A stretch of 64,000 bases of DNA, taken from the NCBI GenBank assembly GCA_049325295.1, contig JBMOMD010000033.1:11588-75587 (forward strand). Direction: 5' to 3'. Source of the stretch: Nitrospirota bacterium (lineage in GTDB: Bacteria > Nitrospirota > Nitrospiria > 2-01-FULL-66-17). A model generated the notes under the pieces. It ran no database searches and was not told the DNA's origin. It saw only the letters and a program-made list of their open reading frames with translations. Positions 8,956 through 49,813 of the stretch are shown in pieces (the stretch's first letter is position 1; each line of letters begins with the position of its first letter). Made by a program: the position numbers and the translations under genes.

Positions 8956-9365
8956 CGACGTTCGCCCACCTCGTGATGACGATCAGGGGCGGCACGAGCC
9001 GGCGCCGGATTGTAGAGGCGTGCGTTCCAACGGAACAATGGACAGCCCGCCCCGTTCGCCTTCCTGCTGACGGAGGACAAGCTCCGCGAGTGCCGTGCGA
9101 TGACGGCCGAAGAAACGCTGCGCTGGCTTGAAGAGGTCAAGGCCTTCGTGAGGAATCGTGCTCCCGGAGCGGTTGGCGCGATGGACGCGACTTCTTCAAG
9201 AACGTGACGGGCCGGCCCGCGCCGGCGACGATCGTCCGTAGTCATTGATCAGGTTGTCGCGGCCGACGCCCCACGCCTCGCCACGAACCAACACCGAACA
9301 CCGAACAACGCCTCTACCGGCTAACCGGCCCACCGGCTAACCGGCGAACCGCACTGTCATCAAAA

Positions 9366-13168: not shown

Positions 13169-13242
13169 GATCGAAACGGCGTGGGCCGGTTTGCCGGTTT
13201 GCCGGTGCGCCGGTTTGCGTGCAACTCAGATGAGGAGGCGAT

Positions 13243-34501: not shown

Positions 34502-36027
34502 TCCACATCGATCGGCCGCCGACGCCGGAACGCCGGTTGCGGATCAAGCGCATGGGCATCGACACGTACCAGGAGCCGGTGATCTACATGCGCCAGGACT
34601 GCGAGGTGTGCCGATCCGAGGGGTTCGAAGCGCAGTCGCGCGTGGAGATTCGTCGCGACGGCCGTCCCATCGTGGCGACGTTGAACGTGGTGACGTCGGA
34701 TCTCTTGGCGCCGGACGAGGCCGGCTTGTCCGAATCCGCCTGGCGTCTGCTGGGCGCGGTGCCCGGGGATTCGATCTCCGTGCGGCACCCGCCGCCGCTC
34801 GAATCGCTCGGCTACGTGCGCGCCAAGGTGCACGGGAAACGGTTGGACGCGGCCGCCATCACCGCCATCGTGCGCGATATCGCGGCGGGCCGTTACGCGG
34901 ACGTGGAGCTGGCCGCGTTCCTGACCGCGGGCGCGGGGGCCGGGCTCGATCTCGATGAAAGCGTCGCGCTGACGCGGGCCATGATCGACGTGGGACGCCG
35001 GATCGACTGGGGTCAACGGCCGATCGCGGACAAACACAGCGTGGGGGGGATCCCCGGCAACCGCACCTCCCTGATCATCGTTCCGATCGTGGCGGCGTGC
35101 GGATTGATCATGCCCAAGACCTCGTCGCGCGCGATCACGTCGCCGGCCGGCACCGCGGACACGATGGAGACGCTGGCGCCGGTGACCCTGGATATCGCGA
35201 CCATGCGCAAGGTGGTGGCCAAGGAGGGCGGGTGCCTGGTGTGGGGCGGGTCGGTGCTGTTGAGCCCGGCCGACGACGTCCTCATCCGCGTGTCGCGGCC
35301 GCTCGACGTGGACGGCGAGGGCCAATTGGTGGCGTCGATCTTGTCGAAAAAAGCGGCCGCCGGGTCCACGCACGTGGTGGTGGATCTGCCGGTGGGGCCC
35401 ACCGCCAAGGTGCGGACCGCGGAGGGGGCGTACGCGCTCAGCGAACGCCTGACCCAGGTGGGCCGGGCGGTGGGGTTGGAGGTGCGGGTGGTCATCACCG
35501 ACGGCTCGCAGCCCGTGGGGCGCGGCCTCGGCCCCGCGCTCGAGGCGCGCGACGCGGTGGCGGTCCTGCGCGGCGAACTCGGCGCGCCGTCCTTCTTGCG
35601 TGATCGCGCGCTGGCGTTGTCCGGGTACGTGCTGGAATTGGCGGGCAAGGCCGAAGGGGGATCCGGGTACGCGATGGCCCGTGCCGCGCTGGACGACGGC
35701 CGCGCGTGGCGCAAGTTCGCCGCCATCTGCGAGGCCCAGGGCGGCATGCGCGAACCGCCCCGCGCGGGCCACACCTCGGTGGTGGCGGCGCGCCGGGCCG
35801 GGCGCGTGGCGGAAATCGACAACCGGCGCCTCGCGCGCATCGCCAAACTGTCGGGCGCGCCGCAAGCGCCGGCCGCGGGCATCGAACTGCACGTCTCGCT
35901 CGGCGCGCCGGTTGAGGTCGGTCAGCCGCTGCTGACGATCCACGCCGAAACCCCGGGTGAACTGGTGTATGCCTTGTCCTACGTGGCTGTACAAGCCGAC
36001 GTGATTCGCATCGAGGAGCCGGCGTGA
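34498..36027 (+). CDS. Thymidine phosphorylase family protein (AMP-phosphorylase-like 'putative thymidine phosphorylase')
   Basis: 'DKHSVGGIPGNRTSLIIVPIVAACG', 'SRAITSPAGTADTME'; ATG overlaps upstream stop (ATGA); remainder of track ORF 34027 is read-through. Confidence 0.8.
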   Translation: MIHIDRPPTPERRLRIKRMGIDTYQEPVIYMRQDCEVCRSEGFEAQSRVEIRRDGRPIVATLNVVTSDLLAPDEAGLSESAWRLLGAVPGDSISVRHPPPLESLGYVRAKVHGKRLDAAAITAIVRDIAAGRYADVELAAFLTAGAGAGLDLDESVALTRAMIDVGRRIDWGQRPIADKHSVGGIPGNRTSLIIVPIVAACGLIMPKTSSRAITSPAGTADTMETLAPVTLDIATMRKVVAKEGGCLVWGGSVLLSPADDVLIRVSRPLDVDGEGQLVASILSKKAAAGSTHVVVDLPVGPTAKVRTAEGAYALSERLTQVGRAVGLEVRVVITDGSQPVGRGLGPALEARDAVAVLRGELGAPSFLRDRALALSGYVLELAGKAEGGSGYAMARAALDDGRAWRKFAAICEAQGGMREPPRAGHTSVVAARRAGRVAEIDNRRLARIAKLSGAPQAPAAGIELHVSLGAPVEVGQPLLTIHAETPGELVYALSYVAVQADVIRIEEPA

Positions 36028-36920
36028 ATCCGGTGGTGGTGTCGCTCGGCCTGCCGGACATGGGGGCGCGCGTGGCGTCGGCGGTCGCCGGCGAAGACGC
36101 CAAGACCGTGGTCCGCCGGTTTCCGGACGGCGAAACGTACGTGCGATTCGAAACCGAGGTGCGGGATCGCGACGTGGTCATCGTGGCGGACCTCGCAGTG
36201 CCGGACGACAAGATCATCCCGTTGCTGTGGGTCGCGGCCACGGCCAAGGACCTGGGCGCGGCGCGCGTCGGATTGACGGCGCCGTATCTGCCGTACATGC
36301 GCCAAGACGCGCGGTTCCAGCCGGGAGAAGGCGTGACCTCGCGGTATTTTGCGCGCGTCATGTCTTCCCACGTGGATTGGCTGGTGACCGTGGATCCTCA
36401 TTTGCACCGGTATCGGTCGCTGGACGAGGTGTACGCGATTCCGAGCCGCGTGGTCAGCGCCGCGCCGGTGCTGGCCCGCTGGATCGAAGGCAACGTCCAG
36501 GAGCCCCTCTTGATCGGGCCGGATGCCGAGAGCGGCCAGTGGGTGCGGGCCGTGGCGGACGCGGTGGGCGCGCCCCACGTGGTGTTGACCAAGACGCGCG
36601 CGGGCGACCACGACGTCCGCGTGGAGGCGCCGAACCTGCGCGAGTACCGAAATCGCTCGCCGGTGATCATCGACGACGTCATTTCCACGGGATCAACCTT
36701 GGCGGAAGCCGCGCGGTTGGTTCGCGGCCAAGGTCTGGCCGCGCCCGTGTGTGTGGCGGTTCACGCGGTGTGTTCGGGAAACGCGTATGATCGGGTGATG
36801 GCGGCGGGGTGCCGGGCCGTGGCCACGTGCAACACCGTGCCCCATGCCAGCAACGCCATCGACGTGTCGGGGCCGCTGAGCGACGGCATCCGGAGTCTGT
36901 TGTCGGCGCCGCCTCGATGA
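36024..36920 (+). CDS. Ribose-phosphate pyrophosphokinase (Prs)-like phosphoribosyltransferase
   Basis: 'VRRFPDGETYVRF' and PRPP-binding 'VIIDDVISTGSTL'; GTG overlaps upstream stop (GTGA). Confidence 0.7.
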   Translation: MNPVVVSLGLPDMGARVASAVAGEDAKTVVRRFPDGETYVRFETEVRDRDVVIVADLAVPDDKIIPLLWVAATAKDLGAARVGLTAPYLPYMRQDARFQPGEGVTSRYFARVMSSHVDWLVTVDPHLHRYRSLDEVYAIPSRVVSAAPVLARWIEGNVQEPLLIGPDAESGQWVRAVADAVGAPHVVLTKTRAGDHDVRVEAPNLREYRNRSPVIIDDVISTGSTLAEAARLVRGQGLAAPVCVAVHAVCSGNAYDRVMAAGCRAVATCNTVPHASNAIDVSGPLSDGIRSLLSAPPR

Positions 36921-36953
36921 CTCGGTGACGCGGACGCGACGATCGACGTCAAC

Positions 36954-37412
36954 ATGGGAGGATCAACGGTGACCAAAGCGGTGTACGTCGTCGTGGCCGC
37001 GGCGATCATGCTCCTCGGGGCCTGTGATGCCAGAAAAGCGATTCGAAGCGTGACGTATCCACCGGACTTCCGTTACCTGGAAGAGGGGGACGTGACGTCC
37101 GCGATGTGGAGGCTGGCGCGTGACGTCCGGGCTCTCAAGGGGCTGCTGGGCGGGGCGAACGGATTGACACCGGACGCCCACCAGGAAGTGGTGCGCCTCC
37201 TTCGGGATATGGAATCAACCGCGGCGCGGCTCGACCCCGCGGGCCGCCGCAGCAACCACCCCCGCATCGACCGCAACATCGAAGCGTTCCGGCGCGATCT
37301 GTCCATGGCGCGCCAGGCCGCGGAGCGCGACCCGCCGAACTATTTTCTGGCCGGCAACGTGGCCGGCTCGTGCAGCTACTGCCACGAGGGACAGCGCGAG
37401 GACGCGCCGTAA
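36954..37412 (+). CDS. Lipoprotein cytochrome c (cytochrome c'-like, C-terminal CxxCH)
   Basis: Lipobox 'LLGAC'; helical body; single haem motif 'CSYCHEG' near the C-terminus as in class II cytochromes c. Confidence 0.5.
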   Translation: MGGSTVTKAVYVVVAAAIMLLGACDARKAIRSVTYPPDFRYLEEGDVTSAMWRLARDVRALKGLLGGANGLTPDAHQEVVRLLRDMESTAARLDPAGRRSNHPRIDRNIEAFRRDLSMARQAAERDPPNYFLAGNVAGSCSYCHEGQREDAP

Positions 37413-37432
37413 TAGCCGGTCAGGGCGGGGAG

Positions 37433-37765
37433 CTATGTCGCCATGCTGAACCGAGCCGACGAGAGGCGCTCGCCGCGGCACACCGGGCAGCGGCTGGGCC
37501 GGCTTAGGCGCTCGCGCTTGCGAAACACGAACCCGCAGCCCAGGCAGGCCGGCGGATCGACAACCAGTTTTGCGCCGGACTCCTTGAGCGTTCGCTCCAG
37601 ATGTTCGAGGTGCTGGAGCACCTCGCGCTCGGACACGCCAATCTCCCGCGACAAGTCCCTTGCGCTGTGAGGTCCTCGGGCCAACGCCTCGCGGATCAAC
37701 GACGGGATCGTCGCGGTCCGCTCGGGCGGGATGGGTTCGTGTTTGTCACGCGTCTGGTCGCGCAA
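37433..37765 (-). CDS. HTH transcriptional regulator with C-terminal zinc ribbon
   Basis: 'ARDLSREIGVSEREVLQHLEHL' HTH; 'CLGCG..CPVC' C-x2-C..C-x2-C ribbon. Confidence 0.5.
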   Translation of the reverse strand: MRDQTRDKHEPIPPERTATIPSLIREALARGPHSARDLSREIGVSEREVLQHLEHLERTLKESGAKLVVDPPACLGCGFVFRKRERLSRPSRCPVCRGERLSSARFSMAT

Positions 37766-38650
37766 TCAGACCCCGAGTCGAGACAAGTCGAGCCGACCTC
37801 CGGCGACGGGCGGGCACCAATAGTAGCCGCCGCTCACCGGCCGGGAGAACGAAAAGAGCGCGTCAACGATTCCGTCATCGAGGCCGACCATCCGGCGCAG
37901 CACGCGTTCATACCGGTCGAGGGACTCCACGTAGGCGATGAACTCCAGCCCCTGCTCGCGCGCCGTGGCCCACGGCATGGAGCGCCGCACCATGAACGCC
38001 GGCGGATCGTAGCTTTCCTGCGCGCTGCGCTTCACGTGCGCCGAGGGCGGTGCGTCGGCGATTTCGGCGTTCGTGTCGGCTCGCCGCCCCATCACTGCGT
38101 CGCGCGTGTCCGATGGAAACGAGCGAAACCGCCGTAAGTCGTGGGCCCACCGCTGAACCGCAACAAAACTCGAACCCTCCAGACCCTTTCCGGCCGGGAC
38201 GAGCGCCGCGCCAATGGCCGCCTCATCACGAGGATTCTCGGTGCCGTCCTCGTAGCCGGTAAGATCCTTCCCGCCCGCATAGGTAAAGGTGTCCAGTGCG
38301 TCATCGAGGATGAACGCCTCGTGGAGGAAGGACTGGATCCGTTCGGTCATATCGAATATCACGCCGCGATCGTGTCCCCGAAGCAAGACCCAGAGTCCCT
38401 GCTGCGTCGAGGGTACGCTGCAGCCGGATCCGGCGAGCCCGGGAAACACGCGGAGCCCCGGCACGTCCCGACCGAGCGCGCGCGCAACCGGCTCGCCCAC
38501 GCCGACAACGCCCCATTCAACGTCGAAGCCGTCGCGCAAGCGCTTCAACGCGGAACGCAGGTCACCGCCGGATGTCATTCGAAACGTCAGCGACCGCCCC
38601 AGGATCGGCGGGGCTGCAAGAATGCCGGGTTGCGCGAGGTCGATCTTCAT
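37766..38650 (-). CDS. Dyp-type peroxidase
   Basis: GxxDG motif 'TGYEDGTENP', 'FVAVQRWAHDL', DyP-like C-terminal half. Confidence 0.75.
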   Translation of the reverse strand: MKIDLAQPGILAAPPILGRSLTFRMTSGGDLRSALKRLRDGFDVEWGVVGVGEPVARALGRDVPGLRVFPGLAGSGCSVPSTQQGLWVLLRGHDRGVIFDMTERIQSFLHEAFILDDALDTFTYAGGKDLTGYEDGTENPRDEAAIGAALVPAGKGLEGSSFVAVQRWAHDLRRFRSFPSDTRDAVMGRRADTNAEIADAPPSAHVKRSAQESYDPPAFMVRRSMPWATAREQGLEFIAYVESLDRYERVLRRMVGLDDGIVDALFSFSRPVSGGYYWCPPVAGGRLDLSRLGV

Positions 38651-38773
38651 GGCGGTCTGTTCCTCGTCGTGTCCGAGTGATGACCCAGAGTACGGGTGCT
38701 CTCGTCAGGAATTCAAGCATCCAGAGACGTCGCTGCGCCTCGAATGTCCGCAGTCGACCGCGAGAGGATGACG

Positions 38774-39169
38774 TTATCTTCGCGCCACCAGTAGCGGCAT
38801 GACGGCGTATACCACGAGCATCAGAATATAGACCGTTCCCGCAACCGGGTCCCGGTTGGAGACGTATTGACTCAGCGTCAAACCCTGGAACCAAAGTACG
38901 ACGGTGAACTCCGGCACAAGGAGGAACATGAGCGCGACAACCCCCATCATGAGCCGGCGAGTCGGTACGGGTGGCACGCTGAGCCGCCGGCATGTCCATT
39001 GCGCCGCGAGCACGATCACCACGAACATGATGGGCATCTCCATCAGCTCGGCCGTTCGCTCGCCGAACCGCGGGACGACCCACAGGACGCGAATGGGCCC
39101 GAGCACGAATCCGGCGCCGAAGACAAGAACGAAGTAGAGGGCGGCGGCTTTTAGTCTAAGCAGAGGCAA
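38774..39169 (-). CDS. Hypothetical membrane protein (4 predicted TM helices)
   Basis: Hydrophobic 131-aa translation; no recognisable motif. Confidence 0.4.
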   Translation of the reverse strand: MPLLRLKAAALYFVLVFGAGFVLGPIRVLWVVPRFGERTAELMEMPIMFVVIVLAAQWTCRRLSVPPVPTRRLMMGVVALMFLLVPEFTVVLWFQGLTLSQYVSNRDPVAGTVYILMLVVYAVMPLLVARR

Positions 39170-39550
39170 ATCCCCCCTCGCCCCCCTTTTTCAAAGGGGG
39201 GGAATAACGATGCCTGAATGGATCTGAAGAGTGAATATCAACGTGCCTGCTTTGTTCCAAATCCCCCCCCTTTTTCAAAGGGGGGGATAACGATGCCTGA
39301 ATGGATCCGAAGAGTGAACATCAACGTGCCTGCTTTGTTCCAAATCCCCCCCTTTTTCAAAGGGGGGGGATAACGATGCCTGAATGGATCCGAAGAGTGA
39401 ACATCAACGTGCCTGCTTTGTTCCAAATCCCCCCCCCTTTTTCAAAGGGGGGGGATAACGATGCCTGAATGGATCTGAAGAGTGAATATCAACGTGCCTG
39501 CTTTGTTCCAAATCCCCCCTTTGGAAAAGGGGGGCTGGGGGGGATTTCGC
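39168..39550. repeat. Tandem array, ~4.4 copies of an 85-89-bp unit, each with a C7-TTTTTCAAA-G7 hairpin
   Basis: Unit 'aaatcccccccctttttcaaagggggggataacgatgcctgaatggatcYgaagagtgaaYatcaacgtgcctgctttgttcc' repeated head-to-tail; last copy degenerate. Confidence 0.85.
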
Positions 39551-39900
39551 TCCACTATGGTCCTATAAATCATCTCGACGACTACGGTCGTTTCCCGCAG
39601 CACCTGCGCATTATCGAATCGAAGCACACACAACCCCTGCCCCAAGCAATACTGATCGCGTTCGACATCGCGCGCTGCGTGACCAGCATCCATGTGTTGC
39701 GATCCGTCAACCTCTACAACGATGTGCGCCTCAGGCGCATAGAAGTCCACAATAATGGGTCCGAGTGGTTTCTGTCGATAGAACTGCACGCCCAGGATCT
39801 GTTTCCGGCGTAGGCGTGACCAGAGGAGGTGTTCGGCGTCGGTCAGAACTCGCCGAAGACGTCGGGCGGGCTGTTTGAGGTTGCGATTATAGGGGAGCAT
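39442..39900 (-). CDS. DUF559 endonuclease-domain protein (Vsr-like fold); C-terminus runs into the repeat array
   Basis: 'MLPYNRNLKQPARRLRRVLTDAEHLLWSRLRRKQILGVQFYRQKPLGPIIVDFYAPEAHIVVEVDGSQH' typical DUF559; the last ~25 codons are encoded by repeat units. Confidence 0.6.
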   Translation of the reverse strand: MLPYNRNLKQPARRLRRVLTDAEHLLWSRLRRKQILGVQFYRQKPLGPIIVDFYAPEAHIVVEVDGSQHMDAGHAARDVERDQYCLGQGLCVLRFDNAQVLRETTVVVEMIYRTIVERNPPQPPFSKGGIWNKAGTLIFTLQIHSGIVIPPL

Positions 39901-40004
39901 ATGGAAACCCTGTAGGGCGGAATCCCCGCTCACTCCTTTTTCAAGGGGGTATTGATTGGGAGTGTCGGCATTATGACGAATCGCGACAGAGAACACCAAT
40001 GCCG

Positions 40005-41045
40005 TCACTTTACGGTGATGCGTCCTTTCTCACCCAAGACTCCATCCACCGTAAGATCTCGGTCGATGAAGTGTCGAATGACCCAGCGGTTGGTCAGCAA
40101 GTGGGTGGTGACGGCTTCGGTGGTGATGGTCGATGGTCCGTGGGCCAGGGCCAGGTAGGGGAGGAGTTGGTCGGCGAGGTGGCGGTCCACGTTGGCGCCG
40201 CTCGTGACGAAGGTCAGGCAGGCGTCGGCGGTTTCGCGGCCCACGGCTTCGGCGCGTTTGCCGACGGCGCCGAGCGCGCCGAACCCTCCGGCGACATGGT
40301 GTGACTGAGCGTTGAGGAAGCAGAACGTGCCGCGGCCAACCGCCGGGGCGTCGATCAGTCGGACGTCGGTCCGGATGCCGGCGGCCGCGAGCGTTTGTGC
40401 GGCGGCCTCGCGCTGCCGCTCCGCGATGTGCAGCGGGAGGTTGGCGACCGCTGAGATCCCCGACGTGCGCGCGATGCGTCCGGCGTGGTCCCAGTCGAGT
40501 CCTCGGAGGTCGGGGCTGGGCTCGATCCGAGCAATGACTTCGCCCTTGCCGATGGGATAGAAGCCCCAGCGGATCAATTCGATGACGGCGTTGACTCCGA
40601 TCAGTCGCAGCGCGGGCAAAAAGACGTCGGAAAGGTACTGAATGGACGGCGAAAGCGGGACATGGGTGCCTCCGTGTAACACGATCCGACTTGGCGCGTC
40701 CGCGCGCGAGAGGGGGAGGAGGATCGCCTGCAGGATGAGCGAGACCGAGCCGGCCGAGCCCTTGCCCGCGGTCTGCTCCACGTCGAACGTGTAGTCGCCT
40801 CCGGTGATGCGGCCCGGGGTGAACACGAGGCGGTTCGATCCCAGCGCGGCGCCCTCGACCTTGGCGCGGCTGATCAGCGCACAGGCAAGGACTCCGGTCA
40901 GGTGCTGGGGTTGGAGGCCGGGCTTACTCCGGTTCTTGCGGACGTTGGTGATCCGGACGGCCTTACCTGTCACGCAGGAGAGCGCGAGCGCGGTTCGGAC
41001 GATTTGTCCGCCGCCTTCGCCGTATGAACCGTCGATGGTGATCAT
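40005..41045 (-). CDS. rtcA: RNA 3'-terminal phosphate cyclase
   Basis: 'IDGSYGEGGGQIVRTALALS', 'LHGGTHVPLSPS'; trimmed to the conserved Met (track ORF 41195 reads through upstream hairpin motif). Confidence 0.85.
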   Translation of the reverse strand: MITIDGSYGEGGGQIVRTALALSCVTGKAVRITNVRKNRSKPGLQPQHLTGVLACALISRAKVEGAALGSNRLVFTPGRITGGDYTFDVEQTAGKGSAGSVSLILQAILLPLSRADAPSRIVLHGGTHVPLSPSIQYLSDVFLPALRLIGVNAVIELIRWGFYPIGKGEVIARIEPSPDLRGLDWDHAGRIARTSGISAVANLPLHIAERQREAAAQTLAAAGIRTDVRLIDAPAVGRGTFCFLNAQSHHVAGGFGALGAVGKRAEAVGRETADACLTFVTSGANVDRHLADQLLPYLALAHGPSTITTEAVTTHLLTNRWVIRHFIDRDLTVDGVLGEKGRITVK

Positions 41046-41178
41046 GCCGTCGAGGCAAATCCCCCCACCCCCCCCTTTTTCAAAGGGGGGATAAAGATGC
41101 GGTTCCAGGTGTCCAGCGGGGCTCATTGTAACCCAGCGGCTGATTGGATATGCTGCGGCTGTTGTCGCGAGCCATGAC

Positions 41179-49675: not shown

Positions 49676-49813
49676 TATGGCGGCGCGCCGGTGCGTAGGT
49701 TGGCCGATGCGCCCGTTAAGGGCGGTCGAACCACGCTGCCGGCCGTCATCACCGGTGAACCGGCGTACCGGAGAACCGGCCAACGCGTTGTTCTTGTGAG
49801 GAGGACATTCGTC

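Follow-up and report, generated by a model that had tools for sequence, protein, structure and literature searches.

Background

BoxC/PIT repeats have been known since the 1990s, and neither a function nor a mechanism of spreading has been established for them; they were reportedly studied by Bachellier in the 1990s and by Hoyne and Maher in 2000, and later, as TMECO, by Holder et al. in 2015. Here, we describe a BoxC/PIT-like triplex-motif element that is amplified locally and tied to a gene of the DUF559 nuclease family in a 64,000-nt stretch of contig JBMOMD010000033.1 (assembly GCA_049325295.1, Nitrospirota bacterium), referred to below as the window. The element is probably a composite palindrome, M-X-M', in which a spacer (X) lies between two inverted modules (M and M'), and which was amplified locally and forms the 3' flank of a DUF559 cassette. 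The modules represent a second, cross-phylum family with the three-arm design, whose natural variants provide covariation evidence for a third (Hoogsteen) strand, and three-arm motifs are systematically paired with a single nuclease family, DUF559, including the pair formed by ycjD and BoxC in E. coli K-12. This pairing may explain the spread of such repeats, and it makes an old descriptive puzzle testable in E. coli.

Oligonucleotides of TMECO/BoxC form an intrastrand triplex according to circular dichroism and nuclear magnetic resonance; in genomes, the elements are always intergenic and often occur in inverted pairs, and their loci are more rearranged among strains than control loci (PMC4666352). 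DNA polymerase stalls at PIT elements in vitro, and neither promoter nor terminator activity was seen for them (PMC4666352). In E. coli, BoxC was renamed PIT and subsequently TMECO. The TMECO consensus is CCCTCNCCC-N3-6-GGGNGAGGG-N3-GGGNGAGGG, and the authors state that mobility functions were never found near TMECO; neither ycjD nor DUF559 is mentioned in their paper (PMC4666352). The module family described here resembles BoxC/PIT/TMECO in having three homopyrimidine/homopurine arms in succession on a single strand (C-G-G, its complement being C-C-G) and a 3-nt loop, in being intergenic, highly conserved and multi-copy with frequent inverted pairs, and in being associated with local rearrangement and lacking promoter or terminator activity; moreover, E. 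coli BoxC #9 adjoins the DUF559 gene ycjD. The arms of the module family are C6(T)/(A)G6 with a TTT-n3-AAA stem extension, whereas those of BoxC are CCCTCNCCC/GGGNGAGGG, and the window modules (C6TTT/AAAG6/G6ATTT) do not match the TMECO/BoxC consensus. BoxC is restricted to Proteobacteria, whereas the module family occurs in Nitrospirota, Desulfobacterota, Methylomirabilota, Deinococcota, phages and others. In addition, the window element carries an internal four-fold tandem amplification, and a link to DUF559 is shown here, whereas no gene link was reported in PMC4666352.

Four other systems invite comparison. Repetitive extragenic palindromes (REPs) and bacterial interspersed mosaic elements (BIMEs), together with the REP-associated tyrosine transposases (RAYTs), are also short, GC-rich and extragenic and occur singly or in mosaic clusters that amplify in tandem (BIME-2); a nuclease or transposase gene lies between inverted repeat copies, and the repeat type follows the gene clade. 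However, the partner here is the PD-(D/E)XK, Vsr-like DUF559 and not an HUH Y1 transposase, mobilisation by DUF559 is hypothetical, and the extra mirror arm of the module has no counterpart in REPs. Judged on the module and the adjacent gene, a REP/RAYT identity was rejected: the module starts with (GAGGC)AAAT and bears no GTAG/CGTC tag, and the gene belongs to PF04480. Bacterial MITEs (miniature transposable elements with inverted repeats), such as Correia, Chunjie and Nezha, are similarly short, non-coding and intergenic, with terminal inverted repeats and long hairpins, but copies of the entire element, X included, are not scattered, target-site duplications were not seen, and what lies at its ends is a cross-phylum module and not the termini of a known insertion sequence. 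CRISPR arrays share regularly spaced, partly palindromic direct repeats, whereas the present array is closed by an inverted repeat copy and shows no leader-like asymmetry. Finally, free-standing homing endonucleases are small stand-alone nuclease genes with a patchy distribution in intergenic sites and operons, comparable to the paaD-DUF559-paaZ arrangement in Deinococcus, and the Vsr-like PD-(D/E)XK homing endonuclease I-Bth0305I (PDB 3R3P) has been grouped with DUF559 (PMC3424549). Unlike these, DUF559 genes are associated with neither introns nor inteins, known homing endonuclease genes lack flanking three-arm palindromes, and homing or cleavage by DUF559 would be hypothetical.

A tandem array bounded by inverted modules

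The array was studied within positions 38700-40000 of the window by direct reading, Tandem Repeats Finder (TRF) and a gap-free repeat finder. TRF, run on the window, reported a repeat at 39181-39519 with a period of 83, 4.0 copies, 95% matches and a score of 620, all other repeats in the window having periods of at most 21; the gap-free repeat finder placed four copies at spacings of 83, 83 and 85 bp. The array thus falls within the definition of a minisatellite or tandem repeat (at least two head-to-tail copies with a period of 10-100 bp). The original prediction, made from the sequence alone, had described about 4.4 copies of a unit of ~ 87 bp. TRF, the repeat finder and the count of spacers agree that the array is real, while the period is 83-85 bp and the copies are four full units followed by an inverted terminal module. 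The features are as follows.

39163-39203, + strand: left terminal module M, GAGGC-AAAT-C6-TCG-C6TTT-TTC-AAAG7, with outer pyrimidine arm, 3-nt linker and hairpin (complete Y-Y-R)
39168-39258, + strand: unit 1 of 91 bp; variant A (T39225, T39236), made up of module M and spacer X
39259-39341, + strand: unit 2 of 83 bp; variant B (C/C), with X preceded by the junction hairpin AAAT-C8-TTTTTCAAA-G7
39342-39424, + strand: unit 3 of 83 bp; variant B, with X preceded by a C7/G8 junction hairpin
39425-39509, + strand: unit 4 of 85 bp; variant A, with X preceded by a C9/G8 junction hairpin
39510-39552, - strand: right terminal module M' (inverted M), AAAT-C6TTT-GGA-AAAG6-CTG-G7ATTT-CGCTC; Y-R-R (purine-type) on the + strand
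39442-39900, - strand: DUF559 (YcjD/Vsr-like PD-(D/E)XK) endonuclease gene, 152 aa; PF04480, E 2e-30, domain at residues 7-115
39913-39951, + strand: degenerate module, 62% to M, just 5' of the DUF559 start, in M' orientation on the gene strand
41052-41092, + strand: solo module, 95% to the left M with both the GAGGC flank and the ATAAMGATGC extension counted, between the divergent rtcA and kinase-like genes
39100-40100, no strand: low-GC island holding the array and DUF559, GC 0.50-0.58 versus ~ 0.65-0.72 in the flanks and 0.64 in the window

The complete module has the form GAGGC-AAAT-C6-n3-C6TTT-n3-AAAG6. What had been taken for an 8-bp insertion in the first copy belongs to the left terminal module, of which it forms the outer arm plus linker (CCCCCCTCG). 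The array is closed after unit 4 by an inverted terminal module piece of 39 bp (39510-39548); M and M' are 87% complementary over 39 nt (39163-39201 against 39514-39552), which corresponds to the terminal inverted repeats of a MITE, and M' is 84% complementary to the solo module over 44 nt (41049-41092). The predicted hairpin of seven C and seven G exists but is more aptly viewed as a stem of 9 bp (CCCCCCTTT/AAAGGGGGG) closed by a 3-nt loop, and within the array its C runs are 6-9 and its G runs 6-8 nt long. The hairpin core CCCCCTTTTTCAAAGGGGG has six sites in the window, five of them in the array region and one at 41071, compared with 0.01 expected, and spacer X (60-61 nt) occurs four times compared with none expected. 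The three internal junctions read AAAT-C7-9-TTTTTCAAA-G7-8-ATAACG; each begins with the 5' context of M' and switches inside the C run to M, whose loop and 3' context follow.

The four X segments differ at only two C/T sites (39225, 39236 and their equivalents), at which units 1 and 4 have T/T and units 2 and 3 have C/C, resulting in a symmetric A-B-B-A order of variants; these are the two polymorphic positions that had been predicted. A CRISPR array, already denied in the original prediction, was rejected for the same reason: there are no unique spacers, the intervening 60-61-nt segments being identical except at those two sites.

The array is non-coding. Its period of 83/85 bp is not a multiple of 3, so that the frame breaks and a protein repeat cannot be encoded; the ORFs (open reading frames) that cross it are the palindrome in translation, including spurious PPFSKGG ORFs, as had been suspected. 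In each unit (39196-39227 in unit 1), the G run of the hairpin is followed by ATAACG and then ATG (39210), which looks like a Shine-Dalgarno sequence with a start codon. The C/T site at 39225 switches TGA to CGA: the A-type units encode MPEWI*, and the B-type units run on into the next hairpin.

The array does reach into one genuine gene. The DUF559 protein matches PF04480 with 105.2 bits (gathering cutoff 20.6) over profile positions 2-108 of 109, and the Pfam domain stops at residue 115 of 152; for residues 116-152 (37 aa, 39445-39555), the reading frame continues through M', X and part of the following hairpin, in agreement with the earlier proposal that the array supplies the C-terminus. 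The nearest solved structure is the DUF559 protein of N. gonorrhoeae (PDB 3HRL, E 3e-15). The window protein is 100% identical to an NCBI protein of a Nitrospirota metagenome-assembled genome (MAG), and exact-protein look-ups of DUF559 and RtcA returned no further contigs.

On folding, the whole array is closed by the outer arms (z = -4.7 as DNA and z = -6.8 as RNA). The strength of the predicted RNA fold raises the question of whether the array acts at the RNA level, as a multi-hairpin 3' untranslated region that terminates or stabilises the DUF559 mRNA or as a source of small structured RNAs. Its position directly 3' of DUF559 on the sense strand would suit such a role, as would the pyrimidine type of the first module there, the sole triplex type able to form in RNA (PMC4666352), and the fact that, in several loci, M' has its outer G arm placed like a Shine-Dalgarno sequence, 0-6 nt ahead of the start codon of DUF559. 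We nevertheless regard an RNA-level function as decidedly unlikely, given that the array has no U tract and the terminator scan called no module, that PIT/BoxC elements lack promoter and terminator activity (PMC4666352), that there is no Rfam match, that modules occur in both orientations relative to neighbouring genes, and that X units are not conserved between genomes. Three related identities were examined in this region. No intrinsic terminator or promoter was called at the modules on either strand, their tails being ATAACG and ATTTGG without a U/T tract; no Rfam family matched at the gathering threshold, and matches at E<=10 were of the chance level only (StyR-143, 18 bits versus a cutoff of 176); and no tRNA or tmRNA gene was found in the array region.

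Three-arm architecture of the modules

A module consists of the 9-bp hairpin and an extra arm that mirrors the inner pyrimidine arm (AAAT-C6, n3, C6TTT, n3, AAAG6). Three homopyrimidine or homopurine arms in the order Y-R-R or Y-Y-R define the class of intrastrand triplex motifs, and the window modules belong to this three-arm class. A three-arm finder returned M at 39171-39201 and the solo module at 41060-41090 (both Y-Y-R) as well as M' at 39514-39544 (Y-R-R on the + strand), with one weak match only in the rest of the 64 kb; all complete modules of the window lie within 1.2 kb of DUF559. The first loop is 3 nt long and the second is 3 nt (with the 9-bp stem) or 9 nt (with third-strand arms of 6-7 nt), compared with a range of 1-6 nt in the intrastrand-triplex (ITxF) study. 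The module family was probably not catalogued by that study because a second loop of 9 nt with 6-nt arms lies beyond its 1-6 nt limits.

The natural variants are informative about the third arm. Perfect N5-TTT-loop-AAA-N5' hairpins in DUF559-linked loci have only two kinds of stem, CCCCC/GGGGG (45 cases) and CTCCC/GGGAG (18 cases), and shuffled sequences contain none; the two stems represent a compensated change. Across the family, the outer arm mirrors the inner pyrimidine arm in 20 informative unique instances, which have a T in an arm (e.g., CTCCCC|CCCCTC, CCCTCTC|CTCTCCC, CCCTCC|CCTCCC and CTCCCCC|CCCCCTC), compared with no direct repeats. A mirror arm is the parallel 'complement' of the purine arm, so that T comes to lie over A-T and C over G-C, the arrangement demanded by pyrimidine-motif triples; on the other strand, G lies over G-C and A over A-T, the arrangement of the purine motif. 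We know of no copying mechanism that yields mirror repeats, and mirror arms are therefore best read as selection on the third strand. Thus, the three-arm covariation is best read as the signature of an intrastrand triplex with T.A-T and C+.G-C triples, as far as sequence comparison can indicate it.

Distribution of the modules in genomes and phages

The exact 21-nt hairpin was found in 31 stretches of viral contigs with a GC content of 42-68%, nearly always preceded by AAATCCCCCC and 3 nt. Matches to the general pattern AAATC6-n3-C6TTT-n3-AAAG6 were found in 68 stretches of viral contigs and in at least 120 of genomes, which represent many phyla, including Desulfobacterota, Nitrospirota, Beta- and Gammaproteobacteria, Methylomirabilota, Binatia, Acidobacteriota, Deinococcota, Bacillota, Omnitrophota and others, with genomic GC values of 42-72%. 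The loop and linker triplets vary freely, and the arms are constant. Modules take the form of full palindromes with both outer arms, of half forms (M or M'), and of composites (M-spacer-M' or M'-linker-M), and they stand in either orientation relative to the neighbouring genes. The genes between modules are ordinary phage and housekeeping genes, among which only DUF559 stood out; ORFs downstream of M' were too noisy to score in GC-rich DNA.

Composites are prone to internal tandem amplification. The arrangement M-(tandem array)-M' recurs in other phyla: L127 (84 bp x2), L198 (33 x4), L142 (31 x4+), L167 (38 x3), L139, L228 (134 x2) and L187 (228 x5). The units of arrays from different genomes are unrelated to each other, so that the window array can be regarded as one case of a general tendency of composites to amplify their interior. 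The largest module array that we encountered is in L187 (858-1998), where each of five tandem 228-bp units contains an M'...M pair. In the phage contig IMGVR_UViG_3300035670_001258 (L009/L028), which also carries DUF559, modules and short module arrays lie between most genes. In the near-identical phage contigs L058, L073 and L080, the triloop differs at all three bases (GAC versus CGT) with identical arms.

The regular spacing of the palindromes in the window, ~ 83 bp or ~ 8 helical turns, could also be expected of iterated protein-binding sites, i.e., iterons, a centromere-like site or an operator array. This explanation is barely credible, since no replication, partition or regulator gene is adjacent, the palindrome occurs singly in hundreds of unrelated contexts and in different phyla, and mirror arms are not what dyad-symmetric DNA-binding proteins select.

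Association of three-arm motifs with DUF559 genes

The link between modules and DUF559 was already visible in protein sequences. In 75 of the 120 closest DUF559 homologues, the C-terminal tail is module M translated in one of three frames, giving the types NPPxPPFxKGG, IPPxPPLxKGG and KSPxxPLLQRGE, and in five of the 120, M' is found at the N-terminus. In practice, modules repeatedly fill protein databases with false ORFs and with C-terminal tails of the NPPxPPFxKGG kind, and they also break short-read assemblies.

One additional piece of evidence was provided by 80 metagenome DUF559 loci chosen by protein similarity alone and hence unbiased toward repeats. Among the 28 loci listed first (50-62% identity), 24 have a C5-6 hairpin within 60 nt 3' of DUF559, and 15 also have one on the 5' side; the C5-6 hairpin is found in almost none of the loci below 50% identity. 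A sequence-agnostic finder, in turn, detected a three-arm motif within 150 nt of DUF559 in 50 of the 80 loci, and the density of matches was 10.4 per kb near DUF559 versus 0.21 per kb elsewhere in the same loci (~ 50-fold). The motif sequence shifts with the DUF559 subclade (C5-6, BoxC-like CCCTCTCCC, CCTCCCC and others), BoxC-like sequences flanking other DUF559 subclades. The usual order on the gene strand is M'-gene-M. At eight loci or more, only 0-6 nt separate the end of the outer G arm of M' from the start codon of DUF559, a placement like that of a ribosome-binding site.

The pattern is present in five of six finished plasmid or chromid records, among them a Sphingomonas record with a composite on either side of DUF559 and an S. 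meliloti record with inverted repeats of ~ 75 nt. On a Deinococcus psychrotolerans plasmid (L288, 298046-299145), the phenylacetate operon holds, between paaD and paaZ, a DUF559 gene accompanied by perfect inverted three-arm modules of ~ 45 nt, which looks like an inserted cassette bounded by terminal inverted repeats.

In E. coli K-12 (L283, NC_000913.3 1350000-1352600), TMECO #9 lies 168 nt 3' of ycjD. The last codons of ycjD (SPSP*) are BoxC-like, and the 3' end of the gene is partly duplicated in tandem before TMECO #9. By our own estimate, based on 18 TMECO loci in 4.6 Mb, the chance of such proximity is ~ 0.003. The ycjD region is colinear in 3341 of 5426 E. coli genomes, and in ~ 2085, the best match covers at most 33% of the query; among the low-coverage genomes listed, this match is usually 164 nt next to fabI, with the breakpoint ~ 40 nt from BoxC. 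In E. coli MCJCHV-1, a TetR/RND operon is located there. Searchable literature contained no published link of DUF559 or ycjD to palindromes or BoxC and nothing relevant on the hairpin, the peptides PPFEKGG and PPFSKGG or the motif AAATCCCCC; the association of gene and repeat thus appears to be undescribed there. In view of these results, the original term 'satellite-like array' was right about the tandem repetition but missed the inverted bounding modules, the cross-phylum family, the link to DUF559 and the nature of X as a local ancestral sequence.

Origin of the array

The ancestral state of the element is shown by a related contig (L202) with a DUF559 protein 86% identical to that of the window. 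The contig is syntenic, with the order kinase, rtcA, M', a GIY-YIG gene, DUF559, M, X and the contig end. Its X can be aligned to the window X at the same position after M with ~ 60% identity by eye. Since a homologous X occupies the same place in L202, X is an ancestral flanking sequence and not a mobile unit, and the ancestral state is DUF559 - M - X - M', with a single 60-bp X between inverted ~ 40-bp modules. Copies of X are restricted to the array within the window, and none are present in the viral contigs.

These data bear directly on another possible origin, in which the array was built actively by an 83-bp MITE-like hairpin unit that inserted into its own hairpin, perhaps with catalysis by DUF559. 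Its attractions are that M-array-M' recurs in many genomes, that the terminal inverted repeats are 39 nt long, that a nuclease gene is adjacent, and that the solo module 1.9 kb away shares flanks (GAGGC..., ...ATAAMGATGC) suggestive of recent module copying. Against it, X is missing from the rest of the window and from the viral contigs, L202 has an orthologous X, the ends show no visible target-site duplication, and the array units of other genomes are unrelated, so that each must have amplified local DNA. We therefore judge self-insertion to be highly improbable. A dispersed 83-bp MITE was likewise rejected as an identity of the unit, because X is absent elsewhere in the window and the viral contigs and orthologous in L202, and because no direct repeat flanks the array.

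Local amplification of M-X-M' would proceed as follows. Whichever way they are read, the cores of M and M' (C6TTT...AAAG6) are nearly identical. [hairpin + X] would have been duplicated when replication slipped or switched templates at these stable structures, which stall polymerase, or when crossover was unequal inside the C runs, giving rise to four units with chimeric internal junctions that combine the left context of M' with the loop and right context of M and with C7-9 runs. Such a process would be consistent with the junction chimeras, the variable homopolymers and the published observations of stalling and instability. An array formed in this way would need no cellular function, and its consequences would be a read-through DUF559 tail, spurious ORFs and a locus prone to structure formation and rearrangement. 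The module family itself probably persists and spreads in DUF559 cassettes, in which the modules serve as terminal inverted repeats and, in many loci, as the ribosome-binding site.

Several points weigh against this interpretation. The A-B-B-A order is not predicted by a single unequal crossover, and several events or gene conversion are needed; slippage or recombination is itself deduced from the structure of the junctions only, and the three internal junction hairpins have no third arm. In the window modules, the arms are homopolymers (T-C6 | C6-T), so the mirror rule fits but is uninformative, and the physical triplex data are those of TMECO oligonucleotides, the window's family being assigned by sequence. 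As for the gene, DUF559 is called an endonuclease by family and fold match, its activity being putative; DUF559 lies within 4 kb of only four of ~ 200 module-centred loci, in each case directly adjacent, and co-travel is thus shown from the gene side only. Finally, the copy number rests on one short-read MAG assembly, and an independent Logan contig of the same organism, which covers 35535-39233, ends inside unit 1.

The last point leads to an important question, namely, whether the array or its copy number could be an artifact of a mis-traversed or expanded repeat in the MAG. The window is indeed a MAG contig, the array (340 bp) exceeds a typical short read, the L202 contig also stops at a hairpin, after X, and the A-B-B-A order could reflect a chimeric path through strain variants. 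However, the junctions all differ in their C and G run lengths and the left terminal module has its own linker, so that long k-mers can order the units, and similar arrays are present in other assemblies, including long contigs. The Logan graph is built with k=31. The stop of the Logan contig, 30 nt past the last unit-1-specific base (39204), implies that X recurs with a different left junction, as the graph would break exactly there; a break is expected if X truly recurs in at least two copies. The Logan contig therefore supports at least two copies in an independent read set, although not four, which answers the concern about an assembly artifact raised in the original prediction with respect to repetition and not with respect to copy number. 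Overall, we consider such an artifact unlikely.

If local amplification within a DUF559 cassette is accepted, it may be asked what moves the modules. Tentatively, DUF559 could be the missing trans-acting partner of BoxC/PIT-type repeats, each subclade recognising and nicking its own folded module (hairpin or triplex) and thereby causing the spread of cassettes and solo modules as well as local amplification. The spread would occur by homing or transposition across phyla and phages, and the partnership would be analogous to RAYT-REP, but with a different fold and with triple-helical recognition.

Neighbouring sequences and other repeats

Several observations concern the surroundings of the array. 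The solo module at 41052-41092 lies 6 nt from the rtcA start codon and is absent from the matching position upstream of rtcA in L202. There (L202 ~ 805-880, equivalent to 41050-41100 of the window), another palindromic repeat, TCGACGAGCTCAGGGCGAACGG...CCGTTCGTGGTGAACCCGTCGA, stands in its place and looks like another widespread intergenic family; module presence therefore varies among relatives. In L202:2133-2876 (equivalent to ~ 39905-40004 of the window), a LEM-3-like GIY-YIG nuclease gene that is absent from the window lies between M' and DUF559, and the site just 3' of M' may collect small nuclease genes.

On the other side of the array, a 131-aa membrane-protein ORF (38774-39169) has, at full length, its sole start in a TTG within the module flank (GGGGGGATTTGCCTC), and the ATG of rtcA is located 6 nt beyond the equivalent flank of the solo module; modules may thus supply or disturb the translation starts of nearby genes. 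Elsewhere in the window, an 8-bp unit, ACCGGCNA (inverted at 13185), is repeated ~ 4 times in tandem at 9316-9351, 13185-13218 and 49751-49784 and could be a recurring binding-site array.

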